Below the pieces are notes generated by a model. It made no database searches, had not been told where the DNA came from, and saw only the letters and a program-made list of their open reading frames with translations. The translations under genes were made by a program, and so were the position numbers. Of a stretch of 64,000 bases of DNA, positions 7,477 through 61,121 are shown one piece after another (the stretch's first letter is position 1; every line of letters starts with the position of its first letter). The stretch comes from Chlamydiia bacterium (GTDB lineage Bacteria; Chlamydiota; Chlamydiia; Chlamydiales; 2-12-FULL-49-11): positions 21,290 through 85,289 of the forward strand of contig JBIKLZ010000003.1 in assembly GCA_044359535.1 (NCBI GenBank), given 5' to 3'.

Positions 7477-8488
7477 GGGAGAGATACTTTTCTTGGTGAG
7501 CTTTTATAATAAGCCCTTCAAGCTCCTCTAAAAGGAGGGGATCATTAGACAGTTCTGCTTTTGCCGCCTCTCTTCCTTGAAAACGCTTCCCTTTAAACGA
7601 AAGCCAAGGCCCCTTTTTCTCCATAATGCCACTTTCAACCCCTAGATCTACAAGAGAGCCTGTTCTAGAAATCCCTTCATTAAACATAATATCAAATTCA
7701 GCACTTCTAAAAGGGGGAGCCATTTTATTTTTTACAATTTTAACACCCACTTGAATCCCTTGATCTAGGTTATCGACCCCTTTAATAGTTGCTTTTCTAC
7801 GAATATCCATTCTAACAGAGGCATAGAATTTTAAAGCCCTACCCCCAGGGGTTGTTTCAGGACTTCCAAACATCACCCCAATTTTTTCTCTGATTTGATT
7901 GATGAAAATAGCGCATGTTTTTGATTTTGCTAAAGTAGATGTTAGCTTTCTTAAGGCTTGAGACATAAGTCGTGCTTGAAGACCAATGTGAGAGTCCCCA
8001 ATTTCTCCAGCAAGTTCACTTTTTGGGACAAGGGCTGCTACAGAGTCTATCACAATAACATCGACAGCTCCAGATCGGGCAAGCATTTCAGCAATGTTTA
8101 AAGCCTCTTCTCCACTATCGGGCTGGGAAATTAAAAGCTCGTCTACATTTACCCCAATGCGAGCTGCATAAGCAGGATCTAAAGCATGCTCAGCATCGAT
8201 ATAGGCTGCAATCCCTCCTCCTTTTTGACAGTTGGCCACAATATGGGTAGCAAGGGTTGATTTACCCGAAGATTCTGGGCCAAAAATTTCAACCACCCTT
8301 CCTCGAGGAACCCCTCCAATTCCAAGGGCAAGGTCAAGGGTTAGCGCCCCTGTTTTAATCACTTCAACTTCTAAAGAGGCTCCCTTTTTTCCTAAGGACA
8401 TAATAGAGCCGGCTCCAAATTGTTTTTCAATATGGGAGATAGCAAGTTCTAAAGCTTTTTTCTTTTCTGATAGAGGATTATCTGACAT
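7442..8488 (-). CDS. recA: recombinase RecA
   Basis: Walker [14 protein letters not shown], plus [14 protein letters not shown] and [23 protein letters not shown]. The 3' end overlaps the convergent ispA by 35 nt. Confidence 0.97.
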
Positions 8489-41320: not shown

Positions 41321-41352
41321 ATCGCGTACCCTTTTTGCAAGGAAATCAAAGT

Positions 41353-43464
41353 ATGTCTGAAAAAATGTTATTAAACAAGAAACAACTTGAAGCTATTTAT
41401 CATATCGATGGACCTCTTGTAGTTATTGCCGGTGCCGGCTCTGGAAAAACCGCTGTTGTGGTTCAAAGAATTGCACACCTACTTGAAAATGGTGTTTTTC
41501 CTCATGAAATACTTGCCCTTACATTTACAAATAAAGCAGCTTCTGAATTAAGGGAAAGGTTGGAAAAAAGGGCTCTTACCCCTCCATTAACTGTAACGTT
41601 TCACGCCCTTGGAGTAAGAATTCTTCGTGAATCGATCCACCACTTTGGATATACCAATAACTTTTCAATCTTTGATCAATCGGATTCTGAGTCCCTTATC
41701 GGTGCAGTTATGGTCGAACTTACGGGGAAAAAGGAAAAAAAAGATGTTAAAGAGATGAAAAGTAACATTTCATCGGCTAAATCTAAACTGATATCACCAC
41801 AATCCCATTTTTCAAAAGAGTTATTCTTCGCTTCAGAAGGGGAAAGAGCCTTTTTTTTCCAGGTCTATGCCCTCTATCAGGAAAGATTAAAAGGGGCAAA
41901 TGCTGTAGATTTTGATGATTTGATTTCTCTTACTGTCCAAATTCTACAAGATAAGGAATTACATAGAATCTATGCCGATCGATGGAAGTATCTATTAGTC
42001 GATGAGTATCAAGATACAAACCATGCTCAATATCTTATTTGTAAAGCGTTATGCTCAAAACATAAAAATATTTTTGTTGTGGGGGATCCTGACCAGTCCA
42101 TTTATTCGTGGAGGGGGGCAAAAATCAGCAATATTTTACATTTTGAAAAGGATTTTCCAGGGGCACATGTAATAGCCCTTGAACAAAATTATCGAAGCAC
42201 ATCCCATATTTTATCTGCAGCTAACTATGTAATACAAAAAAATGACCGGCTGTATGAAAAGAATCTTTACAGTGAAAAAGGGGATGGGGAAAAGGTCTAT
42301 GTACACCCTTTTTCAAATGGATATGAAGAGAGTCGATTTGTTGTTCAAGAGATTAAAAAAGCCTTAAAAGAGGGGGTAGAACCACAAGAGATTGTGATTT
42401 TTTATCGAACCAATTCTCAGTCAAGGATGTTTGAAGATAGCCTTATAGAACAAAAAATTCCCTATCACATTATTGGGGGGCTCTCTTTTTATCAACGAAA
42501 GGAAATCAAAGATATATTAGCCTTTTTAAGGATGATTGTTGCTCCTTTTGATACAGTAAGTTTTTCACGCATCATCCATTTGCCTAAAAGGGGGTTGGGG
42601 CCAAAATCTATAGAAAAAATCATTTCAGCAAGCAGGGAGAGTCAAAAATCCATCATAGATATTTTAAGGGAGGCTCTTGCTGGTAAAGCATTGTTTAAAT
42701 TAACAACCACCGCTCTTGAAGGGTTGAAAGACTTTTTAAATGTGATGGATCGTATTCAAACAATTGCTATGGAGTCAAAATCCATTGCACACCTTATTAG
42801 GGAAGTCTATGCGCTTTCAAGGTACAGTGTTGTTTTATCAGAAGAAAAGGATTCAATGGGTGATCGACTTGAAAATATTGATGAATTGATTTCAAAAGCA
42901 GATGGCTATGATAAGGAGCATCAAGGCTCCCTTCAATCATTTTTAGAAGATGTCTGTTTAGACGGTCAAAAAACAAATAGTGAAGGAGATCAACATAGGA
43001 TTTCTTTGATGACTATCCATAATGCAAAGGGTTTGGAGTTTAGACTCTGCTTTATTGTGGGTTTAGAAGAGGATGTTTTCCCTCATATTCGGGCAAAAAA
43101 TCGCTATGAGGAGATTGAAGAAGAGCGAAGACTTTTTTATGTGGGGATGACACGGGCAAAAGAAAGGCTCTATATGACTTTTGCAAAAAGACGCTTTTTA
43201 TGGGGGACTGAAAAAATTCTTACCCCTTCAAGATTTTTAAAAGAACTCCCCAAAGAACATATTGCAGGCAATGAGATTTCTATAAAAAATGAGGTTTCTA
43301 TAGAGGCTCAAGATGGATCAAGGGTAAGCCATAGAACTTTTGGCAAAGGGTTTATTGTAAAAGTATATGAAACATCCTATGGGGTCACCTATGATGTTGT
43401 TTTTGATTCAGATCTTCAAACTCGGACCCTTGTGGCAAAGTATGCAAAATTAACAGTGCTATAA
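41353..43464 (+). CDS. uvrD: ATP-dependent DNA helicase UvrD/PcrA family
   Basis: Helicase motif I AGAGSGKT, LLVDEYQDTN (motif II), YRS, and TIHNAKGLEF...VGMTRA. Track start is TTG 41335; ATG at 41353. Confidence 0.9.
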   Translation: MSEKMLLNKKQLEAIYHIDGPLVVIAGAGSGKTAVVVQRIAHLLENGVFPHEILALTFTNKAASELRERLEKRALTPPLTVTFHALGVRILRESIHHFGYTNNFSIFDQSDSESLIGAVMVELTGKKEKKDVKEMKSNISSAKSKLISPQSHFSKELFFASEGERAFFFQVYALYQERLKGANAVDFDDLISLTVQILQDKELHRIYADRWKYLLVDEYQDTNHAQYLICKALCSKHKNIFVVGDPDQSIYSWRGAKISNILHFEKDFPGAHVIALEQNYRSTSHILSAANYVIQKNDRLYEKNLYSEKGDGEKVYVHPFSNGYEESRFVVQEIKKALKEGVEPQEIVIFYRTNSQSRMFEDSLIEQKIPYHIIGGLSFYQRKEIKDILAFLRMIVAPFDTVSFSRIIHLPKRGLGPKSIEKIISASRESQKSIIDILREALAGKALFKLTTTALEGLKDFLNVMDRIQTIAMESKSIAHLIREVYALSRYSVVLSEEKDSMGDRLENIDELISKADGYDKEHQGSLQSFLEDVCLDGQKTNSEGDQHRISLMTIHNAKGLEFRLCFIVGLEEDVFPHIRAKNRYEEIEEERRLFYVGMTRAKERLYMTFAKRRFLWGTEKILTPSRFLKELPKEHIAGNEISIKNEVSIEAQDGSRVSHRTFGKGFIVKVYETSYGVTYDVVFDSDLQTRTLVAKYAKLTVL

Positions 43465-43507: not shown

Positions 43508-44677
43508 ATGAAGATGTCACAAAAAACGGGCGTTTATGTAGAACAAAATCTCCTCCAAGGGTTTGATTTACATATGGTCCAACAGGTGCATACATTACCT
43601 GGCTCTTTATTTTCTGAATTTGTCCTTGAGTACTGCCGTTTTCATCGAGGGCTTAAGGCTAGGGCTTTTACTTTGTCAAAAGGAGGGGGGGATCAACTTG
43701 ACTATGTAAAAAAAGAGAGCTTATATGAGCATTTAGCGTTTCAAATTCAAGTGAGCTTTGATGCAAGCGAAAAAAAGGAAGCATTAGAGATTGCAGCAAG
43801 TTTAGATAAAAATGGCTTTTATGATGGTACAATCACCCCTGTTGTAGAAAAGATGTGGCACCTTGATCCTGTGGGTATTGCTACCCCATCTGTTCAAAAA
43901 TCACTTTTTGTTCAACTTAAGAATCTTAATCAAGAGCATCTTCTTGCCGCTAACATTTTAGAACATGGGTATAGATACTTTTTACATAAAGATCTAAAGA
44001 AAATTGCTCATATTGAAAAGGTCTCCATCGATGAGGTAGAAAAAGCGTTTAGTGTGATAAAAACCTTAAATCCTTTTCCAGGAAGGGTATTTCAAGAGTC
44101 TTATGTACACTACATCACCCCTGAAATGATCCTTTCATTTGATAAAAAGTGGAAACTAGAGTTTGTTAAGGAGTGTTACCCCACAGTTAGGATAGTCCAT
44201 AAAGGTTCCCCAAAAGAAATTGCAGATGCAAAAAGATTTATTCATCAACTCCATCAAAGGAAGAATCGATTAGAATGGATTGTTAGCATTATTGTAAAAG
44301 AGCAGGGCTCCTTTTTATTAGGGGAGGGAGAAAAGAAAAACCTAACACGAAAAAGGATTTTAGAGGGGCTTAATATTTCTGAAAGCACCCTATCAAGGAT
44401 TTTATCAGAAAAATATATCCAAACCCCCATGGGGCTTTTTCCTCTAGGCTATTTTTTTTCAAGGCCTACAGCAACGCCATTTGTAGATCAAAGTGTTGAA
44501 AATGCCAAAAAGATCCTTAAAAAATTGATTGATCAAGAAGATAAAAAAGCTCCATACCCTGATGAAATTCTTAAAACACTTCTTAGACATGAAGGAATTA
44601 TTTGTTCTCGAAGGACGATTGCAAAGTACAGGAAAGGATTAAATATTTCTGGGGCCTATCATCGAACTTGTAAATAA
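43508..44677 (+). CDS. rpoN: RNA polymerase sigma-54 factor
   Basis: C-terminal HTH and RpoN box ...ICSRRTIAKYRKGLNISGAYHR. Gln/Leu-rich region I. At 389 aa it is shorter than typical. The uvrD-rpoN adjacency is as I recall in C. trachomatis. Confidence 0.85.
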   Translation: MKMSQKTGVYVEQNLLQGFDLHMVQQVHTLPGSLFSEFVLEYCRFHRGLKARAFTLSKGGGDQLDYVKKESLYEHLAFQIQVSFDASEKKEALEIAASLDKNGFYDGTITPVVEKMWHLDPVGIATPSVQKSLFVQLKNLNQEHLLAANILEHGYRYFLHKDLKKIAHIEKVSIDEVEKAFSVIKTLNPFPGRVFQESYVHYITPEMILSFDKKWKLEFVKECYPTVRIVHKGSPKEIADAKRFIHQLHQRKNRLEWIVSIIVKEQGSFLLGEGEKKNLTRKRILEGLNISESTLSRILSEKYIQTPMGLFPLGYFFSRPTATPFVDQSVENAKKILKKLIDQEDKKAPYPDEILKTLLRHEGIICSRRTIAKYRKGLNISGAYHRTCK

Positions 44678-45384
44678 AAGGGGTCGTCGATGCACAAGGT
44701 CTTTAAAGAACTAGTTTTAGCGCAAGAAGAAAAGAGTTGATCTATAGAGGCTTTAGCCTCCATATTTTGAGGGACCCTTTTTAAAGCGTCGGTATAGATT
44801 GTTTTGAAGTTGCACTTTTTATAGGTTAATGGAGCGCTATTTTTTAAAAAGGTGGGGAAGTTGATAAAATTTGCATAAAAAAGGGTGGGGGAGGGGCTTT
44901 TTTGATAGAAAGTGTTTAAGAGGTGTAAAGAAAAGGTATCTGTAAAGAGGCAATTTTCTCCTAAAAAAATAAGAACACTCTCTTTTTTCATTTCTTTTAA
45001 CCGATCAATGAGGGCTAATGAAATGGGGGTCTCTTGATCGATTTCTACAATCGTTAAAAGGTGATGTTTACCCCTTTTTTTTGCCGAAATATGGACTTTT
45101 TCCAACTCAAGAGGGTGATCCCTATCGATGAAAAGATAGATCTCATAGTTATCATAGTTTTGTTGAAACATTGACTCTAGCTTTTGATGAAAGGTTCGAT
45201 CACTTTCTTTATAGTGAGAAAGAAAAATAAAATCGGTATCTTTTAAATAGCTTTCGTAACTAGGTGGGGGAGAAGTAAAGCTCTTACTTCTTTTGTACAT
45301 ATATAGAAAGGAGAGGGAAAGAAAAAGGATGACAAAAAGGACTTTTAGGCTATGTTTCCGAAACATTCTTGAATAAACTCCCAT
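44659..45384 (-). CDS. membrane-anchored GT2-like protein with degenerate catalytic motifs
   Basis: It aligns by eye with the GT2 at 37250-38068. QKLESMFQQNYDNYEIYLFIDRDHP matches KNLESIFSQNYSAYRVIYIDDASTD. VLIFLGENCLF matches IIVTVDGDDWL. The acidic DD and DxD positions are replaced. Confidence 0.45.
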   Translation of the reverse strand: MGVYSRMFRKHSLKVLFVILFLSLSFLYMYKRSKSFTSPPPSYESYLKDTDFIFLSHYKESDRTFHQKLESMFQQNYDNYEIYLFIDRDHPLELEKVHISAKKRGKHHLLTIVEIDQETPISLALIDRLKEMKKESVLIFLGENCLFTDTFSLHLLNTFYQKSPSPTLFYANFINFPTFLKNSAPLTYKKCNFKTIYTDALKRVPQNMEAKASIDQLFSSCAKTSSLKTLCIDDPFYLQVR

Positions 45385-46067
45385 TTAAATTGAGACCAAT
45401 GAATTTTATCAACCCTTCCTTTGCTCATTAAAGTGATCTCCTCATCGGTCATGGAAAGGAGAATCTCCTCAGGAAAATCTGAAAGTTCTTTTAAGGTGCG
45501 TACACATTTATAGACGCGAAACTGTTTAATAGCTGTAAAGGTAAGGGATGCAAAAAAAAGGCAAAACAAAGGGATTAACGACCATGGGGTGAGAAAAAGG
45601 GCTAGAAAGAAGGCGCTGATTTCTTTGTTTGTAGATAGACAAGGGCTCACCCACTTTCTTAAAATAGAAGAGGAAGATCGGTAAGCTAAAATCTCTTCAT
45701 ATTTAGGCTCATCAAATTGAACACGCCTAGCATGAATTTCTTCATGAGCCATCACCTCTTTTGGGGAAACAAAAAAGGAAGAAATTTTTGAGGGTGCATG
45801 AATTACAGGGATATATAGATCCTTTTCTACTTCAATAATAGTAGTCCTTGCAGCCTCAAAAAAGCGATAGTTTTTATTTTTAAGTAAAATATACCCCCTA
45901 TCCACAGGGATAAAAAGAGCCTTTTTAAACCATTTCTTTGGAAGGGTGTTTAAGGGGTTTAAGGCTATTTCTCGAGTTTTTGCCACCCGTTTTAAAAATT
46001 TTTCCAAAGTTTCATAGGGGCCGGGGAGAAATCCTTTTTTATAGAGATCTAAAAAGGGTTCATGCAT
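45345..46067 (-). CDS. hypothetical membrane protein with HExxH motif
   Basis: 240 aa. VMAHEEIHARR (HExxH), followed by two hydrophobic helices ISAFFLALFLTPWSLIPLFCLFFASLTFTAI. No family recognised. Confidence 0.4.
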   Translation of the reverse strand: MHEPFLDLYKKGFLPGPYETLEKFLKRVAKTREIALNPLNTLPKKWFKKALFIPVDRGYILLKNKNYRFFEAARTTIIEVEKDLYIPVIHAPSKISSFFVSPKEVMAHEEIHARRVQFDEPKYEEILAYRSSSSILRKWVSPCLSTNKEISAFFLALFLTPWSLIPLFCLFFASLTFTAIKQFRVYKCVRTLKELSDFPEEILLSMTDEEITLMSKGRVDKIHWSQFKWEFIQECFGNIA

Positions 46068-46081
46068 AGAGTAAACCCCAA

Positions 46082-47290
46082 TTAAAGAGCATAGATGAGC
46101 TCAAGTTTATACTTTTGAAAATCAAATTTATTATGCATTTCCATAAGAGGTCGTGTAAAGGAAAAGCTTTGAGAAAGGGTAATTGTGTCCTGTAAAGCAT
46201 AGAGAAAGGAGAGTTTAAAACCCCAGTAGTTGCTATTTGCTACAGCTGTCTCTCTAATAGTTGCTGCCCCTTGACCATTAGCAAATAGGGTGTATAGGCC
46301 AATATTATCAGGATTTTCGATACCAATTCCAGAAAAATCCATGAAAGGGATGGCTTGAGGTTGGACAAATTGGACATTAAAATCTAAAGACCAATCATTT
46401 TTCTTTCTAATTTCCCCCATTGAAATACCAATATAGCCAGCAAGGTTATCTAGGCGGTTATCAAGAATTTCAAAGGGTTTAGCAAGGGCATTAAATAAAA
46501 AAGCGGCATAAGCAACACTTACAGCATCAAAAAAGGGATTTTGAAAGCGATAACCAAGGAGAAATTGGCTATTTAAATAGTTATAGGCATAGTTTATCCT
46601 TTCATCTTCATAGTCATGGGTGGCCCAATCAATTAAGGAGTATTTAGCATAAAAGCCCGTATTATAAATATTTAAAAGTCCTGTTTCAACAACAAAGGAA
46701 ATATGGGAAAAAATTTCACTGACTACAAAGGGTGCGGCATAAAGGTAGAAATCACCATAAAGCTCAGTAGTCCTGTTGTAAAGGAGTAAAATACCATCCA
46801 TTAATGCGCCGAATTGGATTTGGGAGTCAAAGGTATAACTTAAAAAACGTCGTCCAAATTCAAGATCTGTTGTGGAGACATCGGTTTCAGAAAGGCGAAA
46901 GCCAAAAAAGGCCCTTTCGAGAGTAAGACCATCAAAGGTGCCCCCATAAATTCCCATGTTATTATCGTATTCAAGTTTTGAGGAGGCCCACGTCATATCA
47001 GTTCTGTAATCAAGGAGAAAATTAAATTCAATATCAAATTGATCACTTGCAATAAGAGGGTGTAAAGATTGGGATCCTAAATACTTGACCCCATTTTTTT
47101 GTTCAGAAAGGGCAATGTACTCGACGTGAATGTCAGCACTAATGGATAAGGCTCCGCCCCGCTCATCAATGGTTAAAGCCCGTTTTGTTGCAATCCACTC
47201 TTTTAAAGCTTCTAAATTCAATGTGTCGTTATCTACAGCAATCAATTGAGGAGAGAAAAAAAAGAGCAATGAAAAGAAGATTTTTTTCAT
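46082..47290 (-). CDS. putative outer-membrane porin
   Basis: Signal peptide MKKIFFSLLFFFSPQLIA. N-terminal helical segment LEALKEWIATKRA, then an amphipathic beta-strand pattern rich in aromatic girdle residues. No family recognised with confidence. Confidence 0.5.
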   Translation of the reverse strand: MKKIFFSLLFFFSPQLIAVDNDTLNLEALKEWIATKRALTIDERGGALSISADIHVEYIALSEQKNGVKYLGSQSLHPLIASDQFDIEFNFLLDYRTDMTWASSKLEYDNNMGIYGGTFDGLTLERAFFGFRLSETDVSTTDLEFGRRFLSYTFDSQIQFGALMDGILLLYNRTTELYGDFYLYAAPFVVSEIFSHISFVVETGLLNIYNTGFYAKYSLIDWATHDYEDERINYAYNYLNSQFLLGYRFQNPFFDAVSVAYAAFLFNALAKPFEILDNRLDNLAGYIGISMGEIRKKNDWSLDFNVQFVQPQAIPFMDFSGIGIENPDNIGLYTLFANGQGAATIRETAVANSNYWGFKLSFLYALQDTITLSQSFSFTRPLMEMHNKFDFQKYKLELIYAL

Positions 47291-49319: not shown

Positions 49320-49375
49320 CGCACGACCTCTTTTAAATCAAAGAATTTTTTCTAGTGAAGTTATTTTCATGACAA

Positions 49376-49405
49376 AGTATACAGCCATAAGAGAGATTTT
49401 GTCAA
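49376..49405 (-). promoter_or_regulatory. candidate sigma70/66-type promoter for rpsT
   Basis: On the minus strand: TTGACA (49405-49400), 18-nt spacer, TATACT (49381-49376), about 55 nt upstream of the rpsT ATG. Confidence 0.4.
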
Positions 49406-49482
49406 AGAAAAATCTAGTTCTTTCCTTATAGAGAGGGAAAAGGTTCGTTTTTTTTACTTTTTTTGAACAATTAAAAAAATAT

Positions 49483-50088: not shown

Positions 50089-50164
50089 AAGGGAAGTTAC
50101 TATGAGCGATAGACAATATTTAGTAAAGATGGTACCCTTTTTGCTCTAAAGGAGTTCAACCATT

Positions 50165-51826
50165 ATGTCTGAGCAAAGTTTGCTTGAAATTTCATATCAT
50201 CAAAAAATTGAAGAGATCGTTGCTATTGCAAAAGATCAAGGATTTATCACCTATGAAGACATCAATGATACCCTCCCTTTATCCATTGATTCAGCTGATG
50301 CACTAGATCAAATTATCATCTATTTAAATGGAATGGATGTTGAAATTTTAGACCAATTTGAGGTCGAAAAAAGGGCAGAAAGGGTAAAAGAAGCTAAAGA
50401 GGGACTCTCTACTAAAAGATCTGAAGGGGCCACCGATGATCCAGTAAGGATGTATTTAAAAGAAATGGGCTCTTCACCCCTACTTACTAGGGAACAAGAG
50501 GTTGAAATTTCAAAAAGGATTGAAAAAGCACAAAGTCAAGCAGAAAAAATTATCCTTCGTTTCAGATATTCAGTTTCAGAATCGCTTTCAATTATCCATT
50601 TTTTAATTGAAGGTAAAGAAAGGTTTGATAGGGTCATTACTGAAAAGAAAATTAATGATAAAAATCAATTTAATAAAATCCTCCCTAAATTATTTCATTT
50701 AATGAAAACTGAGGATGAAAAATTTTCTCATTACCTAACTCTTTTAGAAGATGAAACCCTGTCAAAAATTGAAAAAGCAAAAATTTCTGAAGAGGTTGAA
50801 AAAAGTTTGATTCGGACAGCTGCCTATCTTAGAAGACTTCATTACCGCTATGAAATTATAGAAAGCTTTGGAGAGGTCATTTTATCTAGCTATGAAATCT
50901 TTTTGAAATTGGAAAATGAAATTAAAGAGCTAGCTCCAAGGGCAGAGAAAAATCGATTTGCAAAAGCAAAGCTGTATTCAGCACAGCAAAAGCTTCGTAA
51001 AAAGGAAGTGGCGGCAGGAAGATCTATCATTGAGTTTAAAAAAGATGTAAAAATGTTAAAAAGGTGGATTGATAAGAGTCAAGAAGCTAAAAAAGAAATG
51101 GTTGAATCCAATCTTCGATTGGTGATCTCTATTGCAAAAAAATTTACAAATCGGGGCCTTTCGTTTTTAGATTTGATCCAAGAGGGGAATATGGGCCTTA
51201 TAAAGGCTGTAGAAAAATTTGAGTACAGAAGGGGATATAAGTTTTCCACTTATGCTACTTGGTGGATAAGGCAAGCTGTACAACGGGCCATTTCTGATCA
51301 AGCAAGGACCATTCGTATCCCTGTTCACATGATTGAAACAATCAATAAAGTCCTTAGAGGGGCAAAGCGATTAATGATGGAAACAGGGAAAGAACCAAGT
51401 CCTGAAGAGCTCTCTAAAGTTTTAGGGATGAGTACCGATCGCATTCAAGAAATTTATAAAATTGCTCAACACCCTATTTCATTGCAATCAGAGGTTGGAG
51501 AAGCTGGCGATAGCCAATTTGGTGACTTTTTAGAGGATGTGGGGGCCGAATCTCCTTCAGAAGCGACAGGGTATACAATTTTAAAAGACAAAATTAATGA
51601 GGTTTTATCTTCTCTATCAGAAAGAGAAAGGACAGTGTTGATTGAAAGATTCGGTTTAATCGATGGAAAGCCTAAAACCCTCGAGGAAGTGGGTGTCACT
51701 TTTAAGGTGACTCGAGAAAGGGTGCGGCAAATTGAGGCTAAAGCACTTAGGAAAATGAGACATCCGACAAGATCTTCTCAACTCCAAGCATTTTTAGAAG
51801 TGGCTAATAAAGCAAAGTGTGCATAA
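50165..51826 (+). CDS. rpoD: RNA polymerase primary-type sigma factor, diverged tandem copy 1
   Basis: 553 aa with full regions 1.1-4.2: [85 protein letters not shown], and [20 protein letters not shown]. Confidence 0.93.
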
Positions 51827-51921
51827 GGGTTCTAAAAAAACCTTAGAAAACTTATTTACTAATTTACAATTTTTAATTGAAATGCTAGGATGACATAACT
51901 CCTCTATGGGTATAGGTTTTT

Positions 51922-53595
51922 ATGTCCGATTCTTATCAAGCAAAAACGTTTGATCCTCAATATCAGCAAAAAATTGAAGAGATTGTAGCGATCTCAAAAG
52001 ATCAGGGTTATATCACCTATGAGGAAATCAATGACATTCTCCCCATGAGTTTTGATTCTGCTGAAGAAATCGATCAAATATTGATTTTTTTAAGTGGTAT
52101 GGACATCCAAATATTGAATCAAGTGGAGGTGGATCGTCAAAAAGAGCGAAAAAAAGAGGCAAAAGAGGTTGATGCCGCTCCAAAAAGGAGTGAAGGCTCT
52201 TCTGATGATCCTGTAAGGATGTATTTAAAGGAGATGGGATCAGTTCCCCTCCTTACTCGTGAAGAGGAAGTAGAGATTTCTAAACGTATTGAAAAGGCTC
52301 AAATACAAATTGAAAAAATCATTCTTCGATTCAGGTATGCAATTGGTGAAACCCTTTCAATGATTGAATTTTTAAATAAGGGGAAAGAGCGTTTTGATAA
52401 AATTGTTACGGAGAAGGAAATTACTGATAAGAAGAAATTTTTCGAGATCCTTCCAAAGCTCTATGTCCTTATGCAAGGGGAAGATGAAAAATTAGAAAGT
52501 TATCTTCGTGAGTCTAAAAGGGCTGGAATTTCAAAAATTGAAAAAGTGAAAGTTTTAGAAGAGCTTGAAAAAAGTAGAATTCGGGTTCAAGCCTACCTTA
52601 GGCGAATGCATTTTAAGTACGATATTGTTGAGGATTTAGGAGAAGTGGTTTTATCCAGCTACGAGGTTTTTTTAAGTCTTGAAAAAGAAATTACCGACCT
52701 TACCCCTCGAGCAGAAAAAAATCGATTTGCAAAAGCAAAGCTTTATTCCGCAAGTGAAAAGCTTTTTAGGTTAGAGCTTGCTGCTGGAAGGACAATTGAT
52801 GAGTTTAAAAAAGATGTACGGATGCTTCAACGGTGGATGGATAAAAGCCGCGAGGCAAAAAGGGAGATGGTGGAGTCAAATTTACGCCTTGTGATCTCTA
52901 TTGCAAAAAAATATACCAATAGAGGGCTCTCTTTTTTAGATCTTATTCAAGAGGGAAACATGGGTCTTATGAAGGCTGTAGAAAAATTTGAATACCGCAG
53001 AGGTTATAAATTTTCTACCTATGCCACATGGTGGATACGGCAGGCTGTTACCCGTGCAATTGCTGATCAAGCAAGGACCATTCGTATCCCTGTTCATATG
53101 ATTGAAACCATCAATAAAGTTCTTAGAGGGGCTAAAAAGCTGATGATGGAGACAGGCAAAGAGCCCACTCATGAGGAACTTGCTAAAGAATTGGGTTTAT
53201 CCACTGAAAGAGTTCGAGAAATTTATAAAATTGCCCAACACCCCATTTCATTGCAAGCGGAAGTAGGGGATAGTGGAGAGAGCCAATTTGGGGACTTTTT
53301 AGAGGATACAACAGTTGAATCGCCAGCTGATGCTACAGGCTATTCTATTTTGAAAGAAAAAATGAATGAAGTTTTGCACTCTCTTACTGAGAGGGAAAGA
53401 ACTGTCCTTATTGAACGATTTGGTCTTTTGGATGGAAAACCTAAAACTTTAGAAGAGGTGGGTCTTCACTTTAAAGTCACCCGAGAAAGAGTAAGGCAAA
53501 TTGAAGCAAAAGCATTGAGGAAAATGAGACATCCAACAAGAGCGGGACAGCTTCAAGCATTTTTAGAAGCTATTGAGAAAAATACCCATGGTTAA
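51922..53595 (+). CDS. rpoD: RNA polymerase primary sigma factor (sigma-66/70), tandem copy 2, canonical
   Basis: 557 aa. [66 protein letters not shown] and [20 protein letters not shown]. At positions where the copies differ, this one matches my recollection of Chlamydia sigma-66. Confidence 0.95.
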
Positions 53596-53647
53596 CCAAT
53601 TTTTTATAGAAATTATATCTTCATTTCCTTATACTTTTCCTCATCAT

Positions 53648-53720
53648 GGGGTGTTAGCTCAGTTGGTAGAGCGTAACGCTGGCAGCGTTGAGGTCATCGG
53701 TTCGATCCCGTTACACTCCA
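53648..53720 (+). tRNA. tRNA-Ala (anticodon GGC)
   Basis: Hand-folded 73-nt cloverleaf. Acceptor stem GGGGTGT/ACACTCC with the G3:U70 alanine identity pair. D arm GCTC-AGTTGGTA-GAGC. Anticodon arm TAACG-CTGGCAG-CGTTG. T arm ATCGG-TTCGATC-CCGTT (one U:U mismatch). Discriminator A. CCA is not encoded. Confidence 0.9.
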
Positions 53721-53739
53721 CATGTATTTTTGAGGGAAG

Positions 53740-58685: not shown

Positions 58686-61121
58686 ATGGGTATAAAAAGG
58701 GTAATAATAGGATGGATCTGTTTTTCAACAGCAGTGTTTGCTGCTGAGTATACCTTAAAAACCCCTTTAAAAGAACGAGTCATCGACTGGAAAGCAACGG
58801 TTATCAAAAGACATCAAAATGGTCATGATGAAGAGGTCTTATTTACACAAAAAATAGATGGAAAGGATGTTGCAGTGAAACGCTATCTATTTTCCAATAC
58901 TGGGGTTGTCGTCCTTGAAGAGGATCTAACCACTGTTGAGGAAAATGGGGTTACAAAGATTGTTCCGGACGGCCCTTCGATAACATTTTATGCCCCGTCA
59001 TCGGTTGAAAGTGTTAAAGAGTATAATAAAGGGGTTCAAGATGGACTGTTTATTAAGTACACTAAAGAGGGTGTTGAAGAGATTGTAGCTCACTACAAAA
59101 ATGGCCTTTTATCAGGCTCCTATGTCGAGTATGCCGGAAAGAATCTAAAAAAGCAGGAAGGATTTTTCATAGACGGTAAGCTTGAGGGTGAAGTATGGAG
59201 GTACCACCCATCAGGGAAAAGGGCGCAAAAAGGGTCCTATGTAAATGGATTGCTTGAAGGGATTTCTATCAGTTGGTATGAATCAGGGGTTATTGAATCC
59301 TATAGTTTTTATAGCGGGGGGCTTTTAAATGATACTGATACAAAAGCGGCCCTTATTTTTTACTCAGAAGATGGGGTTGTCAAAGCGACCAAGCGCTATA
59401 AAAAGGGTCTAAAACATGGAGATCACCTTACTTTTTTTTCAAATGGAGCTAAAAAAAGCTACGAGACCTACATCGATGATAAGCTTCATGGAAAGAGTGT
59501 GGAGTATGAAGAAAGTGGAAAAATAGTAGCAAGCGGCGAATTTTGTCATGGGGTTGCTATATTTGAACACATCCGCAAAAGCAGTAATGGGAAAATTTTA
59601 TACATAGCCAACTATGATCAAGAAGGAAAGTTGTTAGAAGACATCAAAGAATTTAATGAAGAAGGGCTTTTAATAGCTAAATACTTTAAGGAAAATGAAC
59701 AGTTCGAAAAGGAGTTTATCACTTACTATGATAATGGAAAGATCAAGCAATCGCTTCATTTTAAGGGGGGGAAACTTCATGGAAAGGCCGAAGAATTTTT
59801 TGAAAGTGGAGAGTATAAGTATAGAGGGCACTATGTTGAAGGGACTCATATAGGGGAGCATTCCACATGGTATGAAAATGGCCAATTAGTTCGAAAAGAA
59901 GTTTATATAGATGGAAAACTTGAGGGTGACCTTAAGGTCTATTTTGAAGATGGGATCCTTGCAACCTCTGCATTTTATAAAAATGGAGAGCTTCATGGAA
60001 AGTACCTATCCCATACCCCACAAGGAGACCTTGTTTTTGAGGCAAACTATTGTGAGGGAAAATTAGATGGAAAGGTGATCAAATATTTTGATAAGGGAAA
60101 AATTTCAGATACTCAAGAGTATAAAAATGGTCTTTTACATGGAACATCAACCCATTATGCTACCGATGAAGGGATTACAGCGATAGAAAATTATAAGGAT
60201 GGGAAACTAGATGGAGAGGCCATAGGTTACTATCAAAGTGGAAATATGTCCTATCAAAATAGCTACAAAGAGGGTCTTTTAGTGGGGGCTCAATACAAGT
60301 ATTTTGATGAAAAACAAAAAAGGGTTGCAGTGTGTGAAAACTACAATAGTGAGGGAAAAAGAGATGGAGAGCAAAAGGCATTTTTTCACAATGGCGCTAT
60401 TTGCCACAGATGTACCTATCAAAATGATAGGCTTCATGGGTTAAAAGAGATCTATAATGAAGAGGGGGAGGTCCTTGAAAGGGCTTATTATGATCAAGGA
60501 GATCTAGATGGTCCCCATTATTCAAAAGATAAGAATGGATCTATTTCAGAGGGAACCTTTAATAAAGGGATGCGCGAAGGGATCCTAAAAGTATTTTATC
60601 CCCTCCACCCAAAATATGGACTTGTCCAATTTATTGAGGGGTATAATGTAGCTGGAAGCCTTCACGGACCTTTAAAAAAGTTTCATATAAATGGAACTTT
60701 AGCTGAAAATTATCAATGTGAGAAAGGTTTTATTGAAGGAAAAGCTACCTACTATAATAGCGATGGGGTTTTATTAAAAGAGGCCTATTTTGAAAAAGGG
60801 CTTTTACATGGGGCAACTAAGGAGTTCTATAAAGATGGAAAACTTCAAAGGGTGATGCATTATGCTCAAGGAAAACCAACGGGAGAGGAAATTGCCTATT
60901 TTCATGATGGGTCGATCAAGCATACTAAAAACTATAAAGAGGGCCTGTTACATGGGGAATGCAAAAATTTTAATGAAAATGGGATTTTGATATTTGAAGC
61001 CGAATATAAAAAAGGGTTGAAGCATGGGATCTTTAATAAGTATTTTGATGATGGAAGAAAAAAACTTTTTCAAAGATATGAAGAGGATAATCGAATAGAA
61101 AAGCAAAGTTTTCCAAAGTAA
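58686..61121 (+). CDS. exported protein built almost entirely of MORN-variant (YwqK-like) repeats
   Basis: Signal peptide MGIKRVIIGWICFSTAVFAAE. About 30 consecutive units of about 23 aa of the form Y..G.L.G....YY..G.....(Y/F), for example YKNGLLHGTSTHYATDEGITAIENYKDGKLDGEAIGYYQSGNM. Confidence 0.75.
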   Translation: MGIKRVIIGWICFSTAVFAAEYTLKTPLKERVIDWKATVIKRHQNGHDEEVLFTQKIDGKDVAVKRYLFSNTGVVVLEEDLTTVEENGVTKIVPDGPSITFYAPSSVESVKEYNKGVQDGLFIKYTKEGVEEIVAHYKNGLLSGSYVEYAGKNLKKQEGFFIDGKLEGEVWRYHPSGKRAQKGSYVNGLLEGISISWYESGVIESYSFYSGGLLNDTDTKAALIFYSEDGVVKATKRYKKGLKHGDHLTFFSNGAKKSYETYIDDKLHGKSVEYEESGKIVASGEFCHGVAIFEHIRKSSNGKILYIANYDQEGKLLEDIKEFNEEGLLIAKYFKENEQFEKEFITYYDNGKIKQSLHFKGGKLHGKAEEFFESGEYKYRGHYVEGTHIGEHSTWYENGQLVRKEVYIDGKLEGDLKVYFEDGILATSAFYKNGELHGKYLSHTPQGDLVFEANYCEGKLDGKVIKYFDKGKISDTQEYKNGLLHGTSTHYATDEGITAIENYKDGKLDGEAIGYYQSGNMSYQNSYKEGLLVGAQYKYFDEKQKRVAVCENYNSEGKRDGEQKAFFHNGAICHRCTYQNDRLHGLKEIYNEEGEVLERAYYDQGDLDGPHYSKDKNGSISEGTFNKGMREGILKVFYPLHPKYGLVQFIEGYNVAGSLHGPLKKFHINGTLAENYQCEKGFIEGKATYYNSDGVLLKEAYFEKGLLHGATKEFYKDGKLQRVMHYAQGKPTGEEIAYFHDGSIKHTKNYKEGLLHGECKNFNENGILIFEAEYKKGLKHGIFNKYFDDGRKKLFQRYEEDNRIEKQSFPK

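Follow-up and report, generated by a model that had tools for sequence, protein, structure and literature searches.

Chlamydial development is thought to run on a minimal set of sigma factors. Only three are known in the Chlamydiae, and the environmental chlamydiae have lost one of these, sigma-28 (Domman and Horn, PMC4652624). Here we analyse a stretch of 64,000 nucleotides from a Chlamydiia bacterium (hereafter the window; positions 21,290 to 85,289 of the forward strand of contig JBIKLZ010000003.1, assembly GCA_044359535.1), in which two full-length genes for sigma-66, the chlamydial RpoD/SigA (NCBIfam equivalog NF004562), lie head to tail on the same strand. The upstream gene encodes a sigma-66-like factor with derived residues in region 2, referred to below as the QS paralogue, and the downstream gene a canonical sigma-66, the TA paralogue. 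A preliminary description of this DNA had set the pair against a chlamydial complement of sigma-66 together with sigma-28 and sigma-54; this complement stands for the Chlamydiaceae, but not for the environmental chlamydiae, which are reported to be without sigma-28 (PMC4652624).

Apart from sigma-66 itself, the closest described systems include the group 2 sigma factors (e.g., E. coli RpoS, cyanobacterial SigB-E and Streptomyces HrdA/C/D). Such factors are primary-sigma paralogues in which regions 2-4 are retained; the -35/-10 promoters they recognise are similar, with subtle shifts, and the absence of region 1.1 defines the group (PMC4598750). RpoS departs from sigma-70 at the same two region 2.4 positions as QS does, carrying E at 440 and M at 444. 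Substitutions on this helix are also known as laboratory alleles: Q437H and T440I of E. coli sigma-70 classically suppress a T:A to C:G promoter mutation at -12, and Q437 and T440 lie on the helix face toward the major groove at -12 (PMC2613000). Natural region 2.4 variants have been described in the single sigma factor of reduced insect endosymbionts, namely T440L/I in Carsonella and Q437H in Hodgkinia (PMC8321222).

QS resembles chlamydial sigma-66 in its length, in having five regions including region 1.1 and a long non-conserved region, in its identical region 4.2 helix, and in scoring above the equivalog cut-off, and the QS pair stands at the ancestral rpoD locus. Unlike sigma-66, however, QS is a second copy beside the canonical one, evolves 1.5-2.9 times faster, and carries Y394F, T440Q and A444S (E. 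coli numbering), states that are absent from 108 canonical proteins. It shares with alternative sigmas the Phe at 394, which is among their states (PMC4593229), but it differs from group 2 in keeping an acidic region 1.1 and the whole non-conserved region, and in being 75% identical to, and in tandem with, its primary partner. Its change at 440 is on the same helix face, toward the -12 major groove, as those of the T440I and Q437H mutants; these are, however, laboratory alleles of the only primary sigma, whereas the change to Gln in QS is natural, fixed family-wide, paired with A444S and Y394F, and located in an extra copy. Carsonella and Hodgkinia offer a natural swap of -12-reading residues in host-dependent bacteria with small genomes, but their variants are read as erosion of a sole sigma, whereas QS has a canonical copy alongside and is under strong purifying selection. 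By sequence, QS passes as a sigma-66, but it departs from the primary sigmas at invariant contact residues (394 and 440) and from group 2 by possessing region 1.1.

The tandem sigma-66 pair and its history

The two genes of the pair are:

50165..51826, + strand: copy 1, the QS paralogue, a full-length sigma-66-like factor of 553 amino acids (aa) with derived region 2 residues
51922..53595, + strand: copy 2, the TA paralogue, a canonical sigma-66 of 557 aa

The genes are 95 bp apart, and their products (identical in sequence to database proteins P0001 for copy 1 and P0021 for copy 2) share 75% identity across 540 residues with a single one-residue gap (BLASTP). Sigma regions 1.1, 1.2, 2, 3 and 4 (Pfam PF03979, PF00140, PF04542, PF04539 and PF04545) are all matched in both proteins, and both score above the cut-off of 779 bits of NF004562, the chlamydial-type RpoD equivalog model, with 931.6 bits for copy 1 and 1003.2 bits for copy 2. 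Paralogues of the same genome are most alike in region 2 (identity 0.91), followed by region 4 (0.88) and region 3 (0.80), and least alike in the non-conserved region (0.61) and region 1.1 (0.59). All five Pfam regions are present in each of the 11 QS-clade members tested, and so are an acidic region 1.1 (net charge -7 to -11) and the entire non-conserved region. These data agree fully with what the preliminary description had read from the window, and its structural statements, a chlamydial origin of the pair included, are borne out. The coordinates of the open reading frames (ORFs) confirm a tandem duplication of a primary sigma, with 553 and 557 codons and a 95-bp gap, and a consensus scan returned no terminator-like site or hairpin on the + strand of that gap, where no convincing terminator had been seen. 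The similar C-terminal half and the diverged region 1.1 and non-conserved region are reflected in the regional identities (0.80-0.91 vs 0.59-0.61), and the region 4.2 recognition helix does have the same sequence in both copies.

When copy 1 was used as a database query, 120 close chlamydial sigma-66 proteins were retrieved, 12 of which have the Gln-type region 2.4 motif, all others being canonical. By retrieving the encoding contigs and scanning 185,579 species genomes for the Gln-bearing motif, we found the tandem pair in at least 11 further species-level lineages, which come from independent assemblies (JGI, ENA, Logan and NCBI) and form one clade (loci L001-L004, L006, L007, L026, L027, L049, L063, L070, L086, L093, L107, L108 and L114). 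The gene order is kept as rpoN, ShlB-like gene, rpsT, coiA-like gene, QS sigma, TA sigma, tRNA-Ala, aminotransferase gene and mreC, and in representatives of the sister families Simkaniaceae (L109) and Rhabdochlamydiaceae (L110) a single sigma-66 gene occupies exactly the same slot. Among the members of the pair-bearing clade, whose lineages are uncultured, are the metagenome-assembled genomes (MAGs) O_S4.2_20, O_S4.2_27 and P_S1_9, which are assigned to Simkaniales, Ca. Parasimkaniaceae, in Data S6 of Dharamshi et al. 2022 (PMC9666466); the word 'sigma' does not occur in the main text of that study. Scanning metagenomes for additional family members added no more than a further contig belonging to the window's species and a single truncated relative. 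We found no published account of a sigma-66 duplication or paralogue, or of Parasimkaniaceae sigma factors, in a literature search whose coverage was incomplete and which gives absence of evidence only.

In the sponge-associated species (L005/L048; MAGs O_S4.2_27 and P_S1_9), the QS gene and the canonical gene are both intact and lie on different contigs. Loss of the canonical copy from this species was considered and rejected, as protein P0016 opens another contig of the same MAG. An array of small ORFs is found between its sigma genes (L005 7678-11692; L104 ~590-2600; L105 ~415-2430), consisting of repeat-rich, paralogous ORFs of ~80-160 aa with an N-gap and no Pfam hits on record, and it is because of this repeat-rich insertion that the assembly breaks between the two genes. 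The QS gene of L108 has one frameshift in an otherwise conserved ORF. We did not accept pseudogenisation in this case, given that the frameshift is a lone one in a long-read contig of 2x coverage. Three of the pair-bearing loci (L026, L027 and L049; CAMCSI01, CAMAXK01 and CAMDFS01) come from public MAGs of ~36-37% guanine-plus-cytosine (GC) content titled 'Chlamydia trachomatis', a label that is evidently wrong.

In a neighbour-joining tree with bootstrap of 125 proteins, copy 1 falls within a QS clade (bootstrap 100%) and copy 2 within the clade of co-resident canonical partners (100%), with QS and partners together separated from the other chlamydial sigma-66 proteins at 99%. An upstream paralogue bearing Gln and Ser is likewise present in the two deepest partner lineages, L107 and L108. 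Distances among QS proteins correlate with those among their partners (Mantel r = 0.84, p = 0.0004), QS evolving ~2.6 times faster. Synonymous differences between the paralogues are saturated (pS 0.70-0.81), and saturation of dS also meant that no estimate of the ratio of nonsynonymous to synonymous rates (dN/dS, omega) was obtained for the stem branch. From the only species pair with unsaturated dS, omega is 0.023 for QS and 0.010 for TA, and dN(QS)/dN(TA) ranges from 1.5 to 2.9 over all pairs. QS has outpaced TA by ~5-fold in region 1.1, by ~3-fold in both region 1.2 and region 3, and by ~1.3-fold in region 4, while in region 2 the ratio is high but the absolute difference small (0.93 vs 0.99 identity).

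At residues that are identical between paralogues, the same codon is used in ~50% of cases in each 40-codon segment. Since this equals the value in non-partner comparisons in every segment, there is no signal of gene conversion between the paralogues, and a recent duplication or gene conversion as the origin of the identical C-terminal halves was rejected. A tree to date the duplication and a dN/dS analysis of the copies had been proposed in the preliminary description; the former places the duplication on the stem of the family, and the latter finds both copies under purifying selection. Overall, the sequences indicate one old, in-situ tandem duplication on the family stem, both copies of which are kept by purifying selection. 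Copy 2 is likely the housekeeping sigma, because it evolves more slowly, scores higher against NF004562 and groups with the canonical partners.

Derived residues of the upstream copy

Residues 258-545 of copy 1 align without gaps to residues 325-612 of E. coli sigma-70 (offset +67), so that Gln373 of copy 1 is the equivalent of T440 and Ser377 that of A444. The codons concerned are:

51143..51145, + strand: Phe327 of copy 1, equivalent to sigma-70 Y394 (Taq Y217); coordinate computed from the start codon
51281..51283, + strand: CAA, Gln373 of copy 1, equivalent to sigma-70 T440, the -12-reading position
51293..51295, + strand: TCT, Ser377 of copy 1, equivalent to sigma-70 A444, one helical turn past 440 and beside R441
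53050..53052, + strand: ACC, Thr377 of copy 2, the canonical T440 equivalent

The preliminary description had singled out the Gln and Thr codons at the T440 equivalent, and these are exact; the role in -12 reading that it attributed to Q437 and T440 is likewise documented (PMC2613000). It had not stressed the neighbouring Ala-to-Ser change, which is invariant together with Gln in 14 upstream paralogues, where 108 canonical proteins have Ala and Thr. Beyond the T440Q change that had been flagged, Y394F is a second change at a near-invariant residue of primary sigmas.

Comparing 14 QS with 11 partner sequences, we identified seven family-wide fixed differences, i.e., T144S, Y394F, T440Q, A444S, K469R, E516D and V528A (E. 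coli numbering from 394 onward), the sole exceptions being in the rough join of the frameshifted L108 gene. At 394, 440 and 444, the derived states F, Q and S are present in 14/14 QS proteins and the canonical states in 11/11 partners, and none of the 108 canonical chlamydial sigma-66 proteins (compared with 11 QS proteins) departs from Y394, T440 or A444. Three further differences (F41I, E162K and Q219A) are fixed among the closer QS members. Residues W433, W434, Q437, R441, H455 and E458, as well as the entire region 4.2 recognition helix, are invariant in the QS clade. Copy 2 has all eight near-invariant contact residues of primary sigmas; copy 1 retains six of them and departs at 394 (F) and 440 (Q).

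Y394F, T440Q and A444S, i.e., three of the seven fixed changes, share one surface, the upstream fork junction, and two of the three introduce residues typical of alternative sigmas. Y217 of the Thermus open complex, the counterpart of sigma-70 Y394, stacks on the template T at -11, which is orphaned when A-11 flips out, and in the case of Y394A isomerisation is 2- to 3-fold slower (PMC4593229). Among 1002 primary sigmas, residue 394 is Y in 996, H in 5 and F in 1, and it is given as 'Y or F' in alternative sigmas (PMC4593229). Between 440 and 444 on the helix lies R264 (R441), which reads G-14 of the extended -10 element (PMC4593229).

Gln at 440 was also considered as a feature unique to QS, and this was rejected: outside the chlamydiae, it is present in 96 stretches from the scanned species genomes, the majority belonging to short alternative sigmas in other phyla, and most of these proteins are 230-400 aa long and without the N-terminal regions. 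Several metagenome contigs of 43-47% GC (L111, L113, L116 and L112) encode non-chlamydial sigma-70-family proteins with 40-46% identity to the window proteins. In L112 the DNA pattern was matched but the motif was not picked up by the protein regular expression, whereas L111, L113 and L116 have the exact region 2.4 string of copy 1, WWIRQAIQRAISDQ. Because these three share that string, at least one further lineage has acquired or retained the Gln/Ser pair.

Promoters and possible roles of the paralogues

The predicted regulatory elements of the two genes are:

50110..50138, + strand: P_QS, putative copy 1 promoter, with -35 TAGACA (50110-50115), a spacer of 17 nt, and an extended -10 composed of TG (50130-50131) and TACCCT (50133-50138)
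50149..50154, + strand: Shine-Dalgarno-like AAGGAG of copy 1, ~10 nt 5' of the ATG at 50165
51827..51921, + strand: 95-bp inter-gene spacer, containing the copy 2 promoter
51863..51891, + strand: P_TA, putative copy 2 promoter (consensus scan), with -35 TTTACA (51863-51868), a spacer of 17 nt, and an extended -10 composed of TG (51883-51884) and TAGGAT (51886-51891)

Both promoter modules are conserved separately. The module T(A/G)GACA-N14-TGn-TAnnnT stands in register ahead of the QS gene in 11 species, the deepest branches among them, and TTTACA-N14-TGn-TA(G/A)NAT stands in register ahead of the TA gene in 10 species. The GGAG motif recurs in the leaders of QS orthologues. As the consensus sequences of P_QS and P_TA have many positions in common (ACAATATT ... 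TGnTA), the duplicated unit probably included the promoter, the hexamers having diverged later and each version having then been conserved. In the Lake Mendota lineage (L003 / L086 5641-6174), the spacer between the sigma genes is 534 bp, as opposed to 65-112 bp elsewhere; a pair of small ORFs (63 and 95-99 aa) that overlap each other is predicted within this spacer, and the copy 2 promoter is still at its 3' end. Footprints across species were also obtained for three other promoters of the neighbourhood, none of which has TG: TTGACA-17/18-TATACT for rpsT, TTGACT-17-TATYSY-type (TATCCT, TATTCT, TATTGT and TATCGT) for the ShlB-like gene, and TTTACC-17-TAGRAT for omp402.

From these comparisons we infer an altered promoter selectivity and a separate regulon of QS. 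It is probable, in our assessment, that QS is a sigma of group 1 architecture that acts like a group 2 alternative sigma, with shifted preference and/or opening kinetics and a partly distinct regulon. The sigma-66 gene, probably together with its extended -10 promoter, underwent an in-place duplication in the stem lineage of Ca. Parasimkaniaceae and close relatives, after which the downstream copy remained the canonical, likely housekeeping sigma. The upstream copy kept the full group 1 architecture, the -35-reading helix and the residues that read the extended -10 TG, A-11 and T-7, while fixing Y394F, where the side chain stacks on the template T orphaned at -11, T440Q toward the major groove at -12, and A444S flanking R441, the contact of G-14. 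Smaller fixed changes are present in region 3 and the sigma finger, and region 1.1 is fast-evolving. QS would then compete for the same core RNA polymerase and recognise sigma-66-type promoters, and a preference shifted at -12/-13 and/or different opening kinetics would lead to a partly distinct regulon. Because a predicted promoter of its own would drive its transcription, the level of QS could be set independently. More tentatively, and with the odds somewhat against it, QS might be a genuine additional promoter-specificity factor, whose fork-junction surface at -12/-11 has been re-tuned and which has its own regulon. One possibility is that such a regulon comprises stage-specific (late or elementary-body) genes, replacing the sigma-28 that is reported lost in environmental chlamydiae.

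Several points weigh against a change in promoter preference. All five footprinted promoters of the neighbourhood (those of rpsT, the ShlB-like gene, omp402 and both sigma genes) keep T-12, A-11 and T-7, and no promoter class with a non-T -12 appears among them, although five is far too small a number to exclude one. A few long, possibly primary sigmas of other phyla also bear Gln at 440, for which reason this residue is compatible with general promoter use. The Y-to-F and A-to-S changes are chemically conservative. Lastly, Q437 is not hydrogen-bonded to the -12 pair of the final open complex, and its contribution may come in an intermediate (PMC4593229), so the effects at a 440-type surface may be kinetic and not a clean change of base specificity.

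The alternative that has to be weighed most carefully is one of purely regulatory subfunctionalisation, in which the two sigmas recognise the same promoters, little or no effect comes from the region 2.4 changes, and the pair is kept by expression timing or partner binding. The candidate partners would be the anti-sigma factor RsbW and the activator GrgA, a difference in region 1.1 autoinhibition being another option. For Chlamydia, RsbW is described as controlling the availability of sigma-66 (PMC4552016) and GrgA as contacting its non-conserved region (Bao et al. 2012, cited in PMC4652624). Such a scenario is in line with the divergence of P_QS and P_TA in their -35 and -10 hexamers, each version being conserved, and with the T at -12 of all sampled local promoters; the largest absolute acceleration of QS is in region 1.1 and the non-conserved region, and fixed differences are N-terminal as well (T144S, and F41I, E162K and Q219A among closer members). 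But it leaves unexplained how, at three positions, residues that do not vary among 108 canonical proteins came to be replaced once and have since stayed fixed in 14 QS proteins (two of these positions are known determinants of promoter reading or opening), and it does not account for the departure of RpoS from sigma-70 at helix positions 440 and 444. We regard it as unlikely, though it deserves serious consideration.

That the second gene is a redundant dosage copy, which merely raises or buffers the sigma-66 supply and has no distinct role, is quite improbable. It agrees with both proteins passing the same equivalog and with the major DNA-contact residues being shared apart from 394, 440 and 444, but redundancy is not expected to outlast synonymous saturation with an omega of ~0.02 and a family-wide fixed signature, and the amino-acid rate is consistently 1.5-2.9-fold higher in one copy only, in the absence of gene conversion. 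Hardly any weight is left for an assembly or binning chimera or an incipient pseudogene, to which the frameshift in L108 and the separate contigs of the sponge-associated species might point. The same tandem pair was assembled independently by several pipelines from many samples, and the paralogues differ at ~75% of synonymous sites and cannot be collapsed or duplicated reads, on which grounds an assembly artefact was rejected; as for decay, the L108 frameshift stands alone in its 2x long-read contig, and the two genes of the sponge-associated species are both intact and split by the repeat-rich insertion.

If our preferred reading, an alternative-like role for QS, is true, a second maintained sigma-66-type factor across a whole family would constitute an unrecognised layer of promoter selection. 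The family with QS probably possesses one promoter-selecting factor beyond the number assumed for chlamydiae. An extra specificity factor with its own regulon would overturn the view of at most three chlamydial sigma factors, and changed reading of the upstream edge of the -10 element through 394, 440 and 444 would be a natural and evolutionarily stable case of its kind. The locus may be regarded as a natural experiment in re-tuning a primary sigma at its -12/-11 fork-junction surface, where two helix positions, 440 and 444, also separate RpoS from sigma-70. With no more than seven fixed differences between the paralogues, recombinant proteins offer a direct test of the idea. In practical terms, single-copy marker sets and annotation pipelines will label both genes 'RpoD/SigA', so that contamination estimates can be inflated and the paralogy hidden.

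Neighbouring genes

Two further features belong to the conserved gene order around the pair:

43508..44677, + strand: rpoN (sigma-54), 5.5 kb upstream of the pair, with Pfam Sigma54_CBD and Sigma54_DBD, syntenic in relatives
53648..53721, + strand: tRNA-Ala(GGC), directly 3' of copy 2, marking the end of the sigma unit

Throughout the family, the tRNA-Ala gene keeps its place between the genes for the sigma and the aminotransferase, following the sigma gene on the same strand, and a TATACT -10 is located just 5' of it at 53630-53635. In the Rhabdochlamydiaceae outgroup (L110, ~7690-7765), what seems to be the same tRNA, read by eye, has the opposite orientation. With rpoN and the sigma-66 pair, three sigma genes lie within 10 kb, and the order uvrD (41335-43464)-rpoN ... 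rpsT-coiA-sigma-66 is common to relatives. An Rfam scan returned only the tRNA and a match to RF03531 inside the uvrD coding region (43090-43187, + strand; 66.2 bits vs a gathering score of 65.2). RF03531 is described as 'C. difficile sRNA included into helicase gene', and since the match is inside the coding region of the UvrD helicase, it most likely reflects conserved coding sequence, not a small RNA.

The gap between rpsT and the coiA-like gene is only 163 bp in the window (49320-49482). At the same place, L001, L004, L006, L107, L108 and the outgroups L109 and L110 have a + strand ORF of ~155-170 aa with no Pfam match, which the window's lineage has apparently lost. Three consecutive ORFs on the - strand (44659-47290; 241, 240 and 402 aa) separate rpoN from the ShlB-like gene; they have no Pfam match and are syntenic in relatives. 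Downstream of the sigma pair, at 58686-61121 on the + strand, lies a gene for an 811-aa protein that consists largely of MORN-type repeats.

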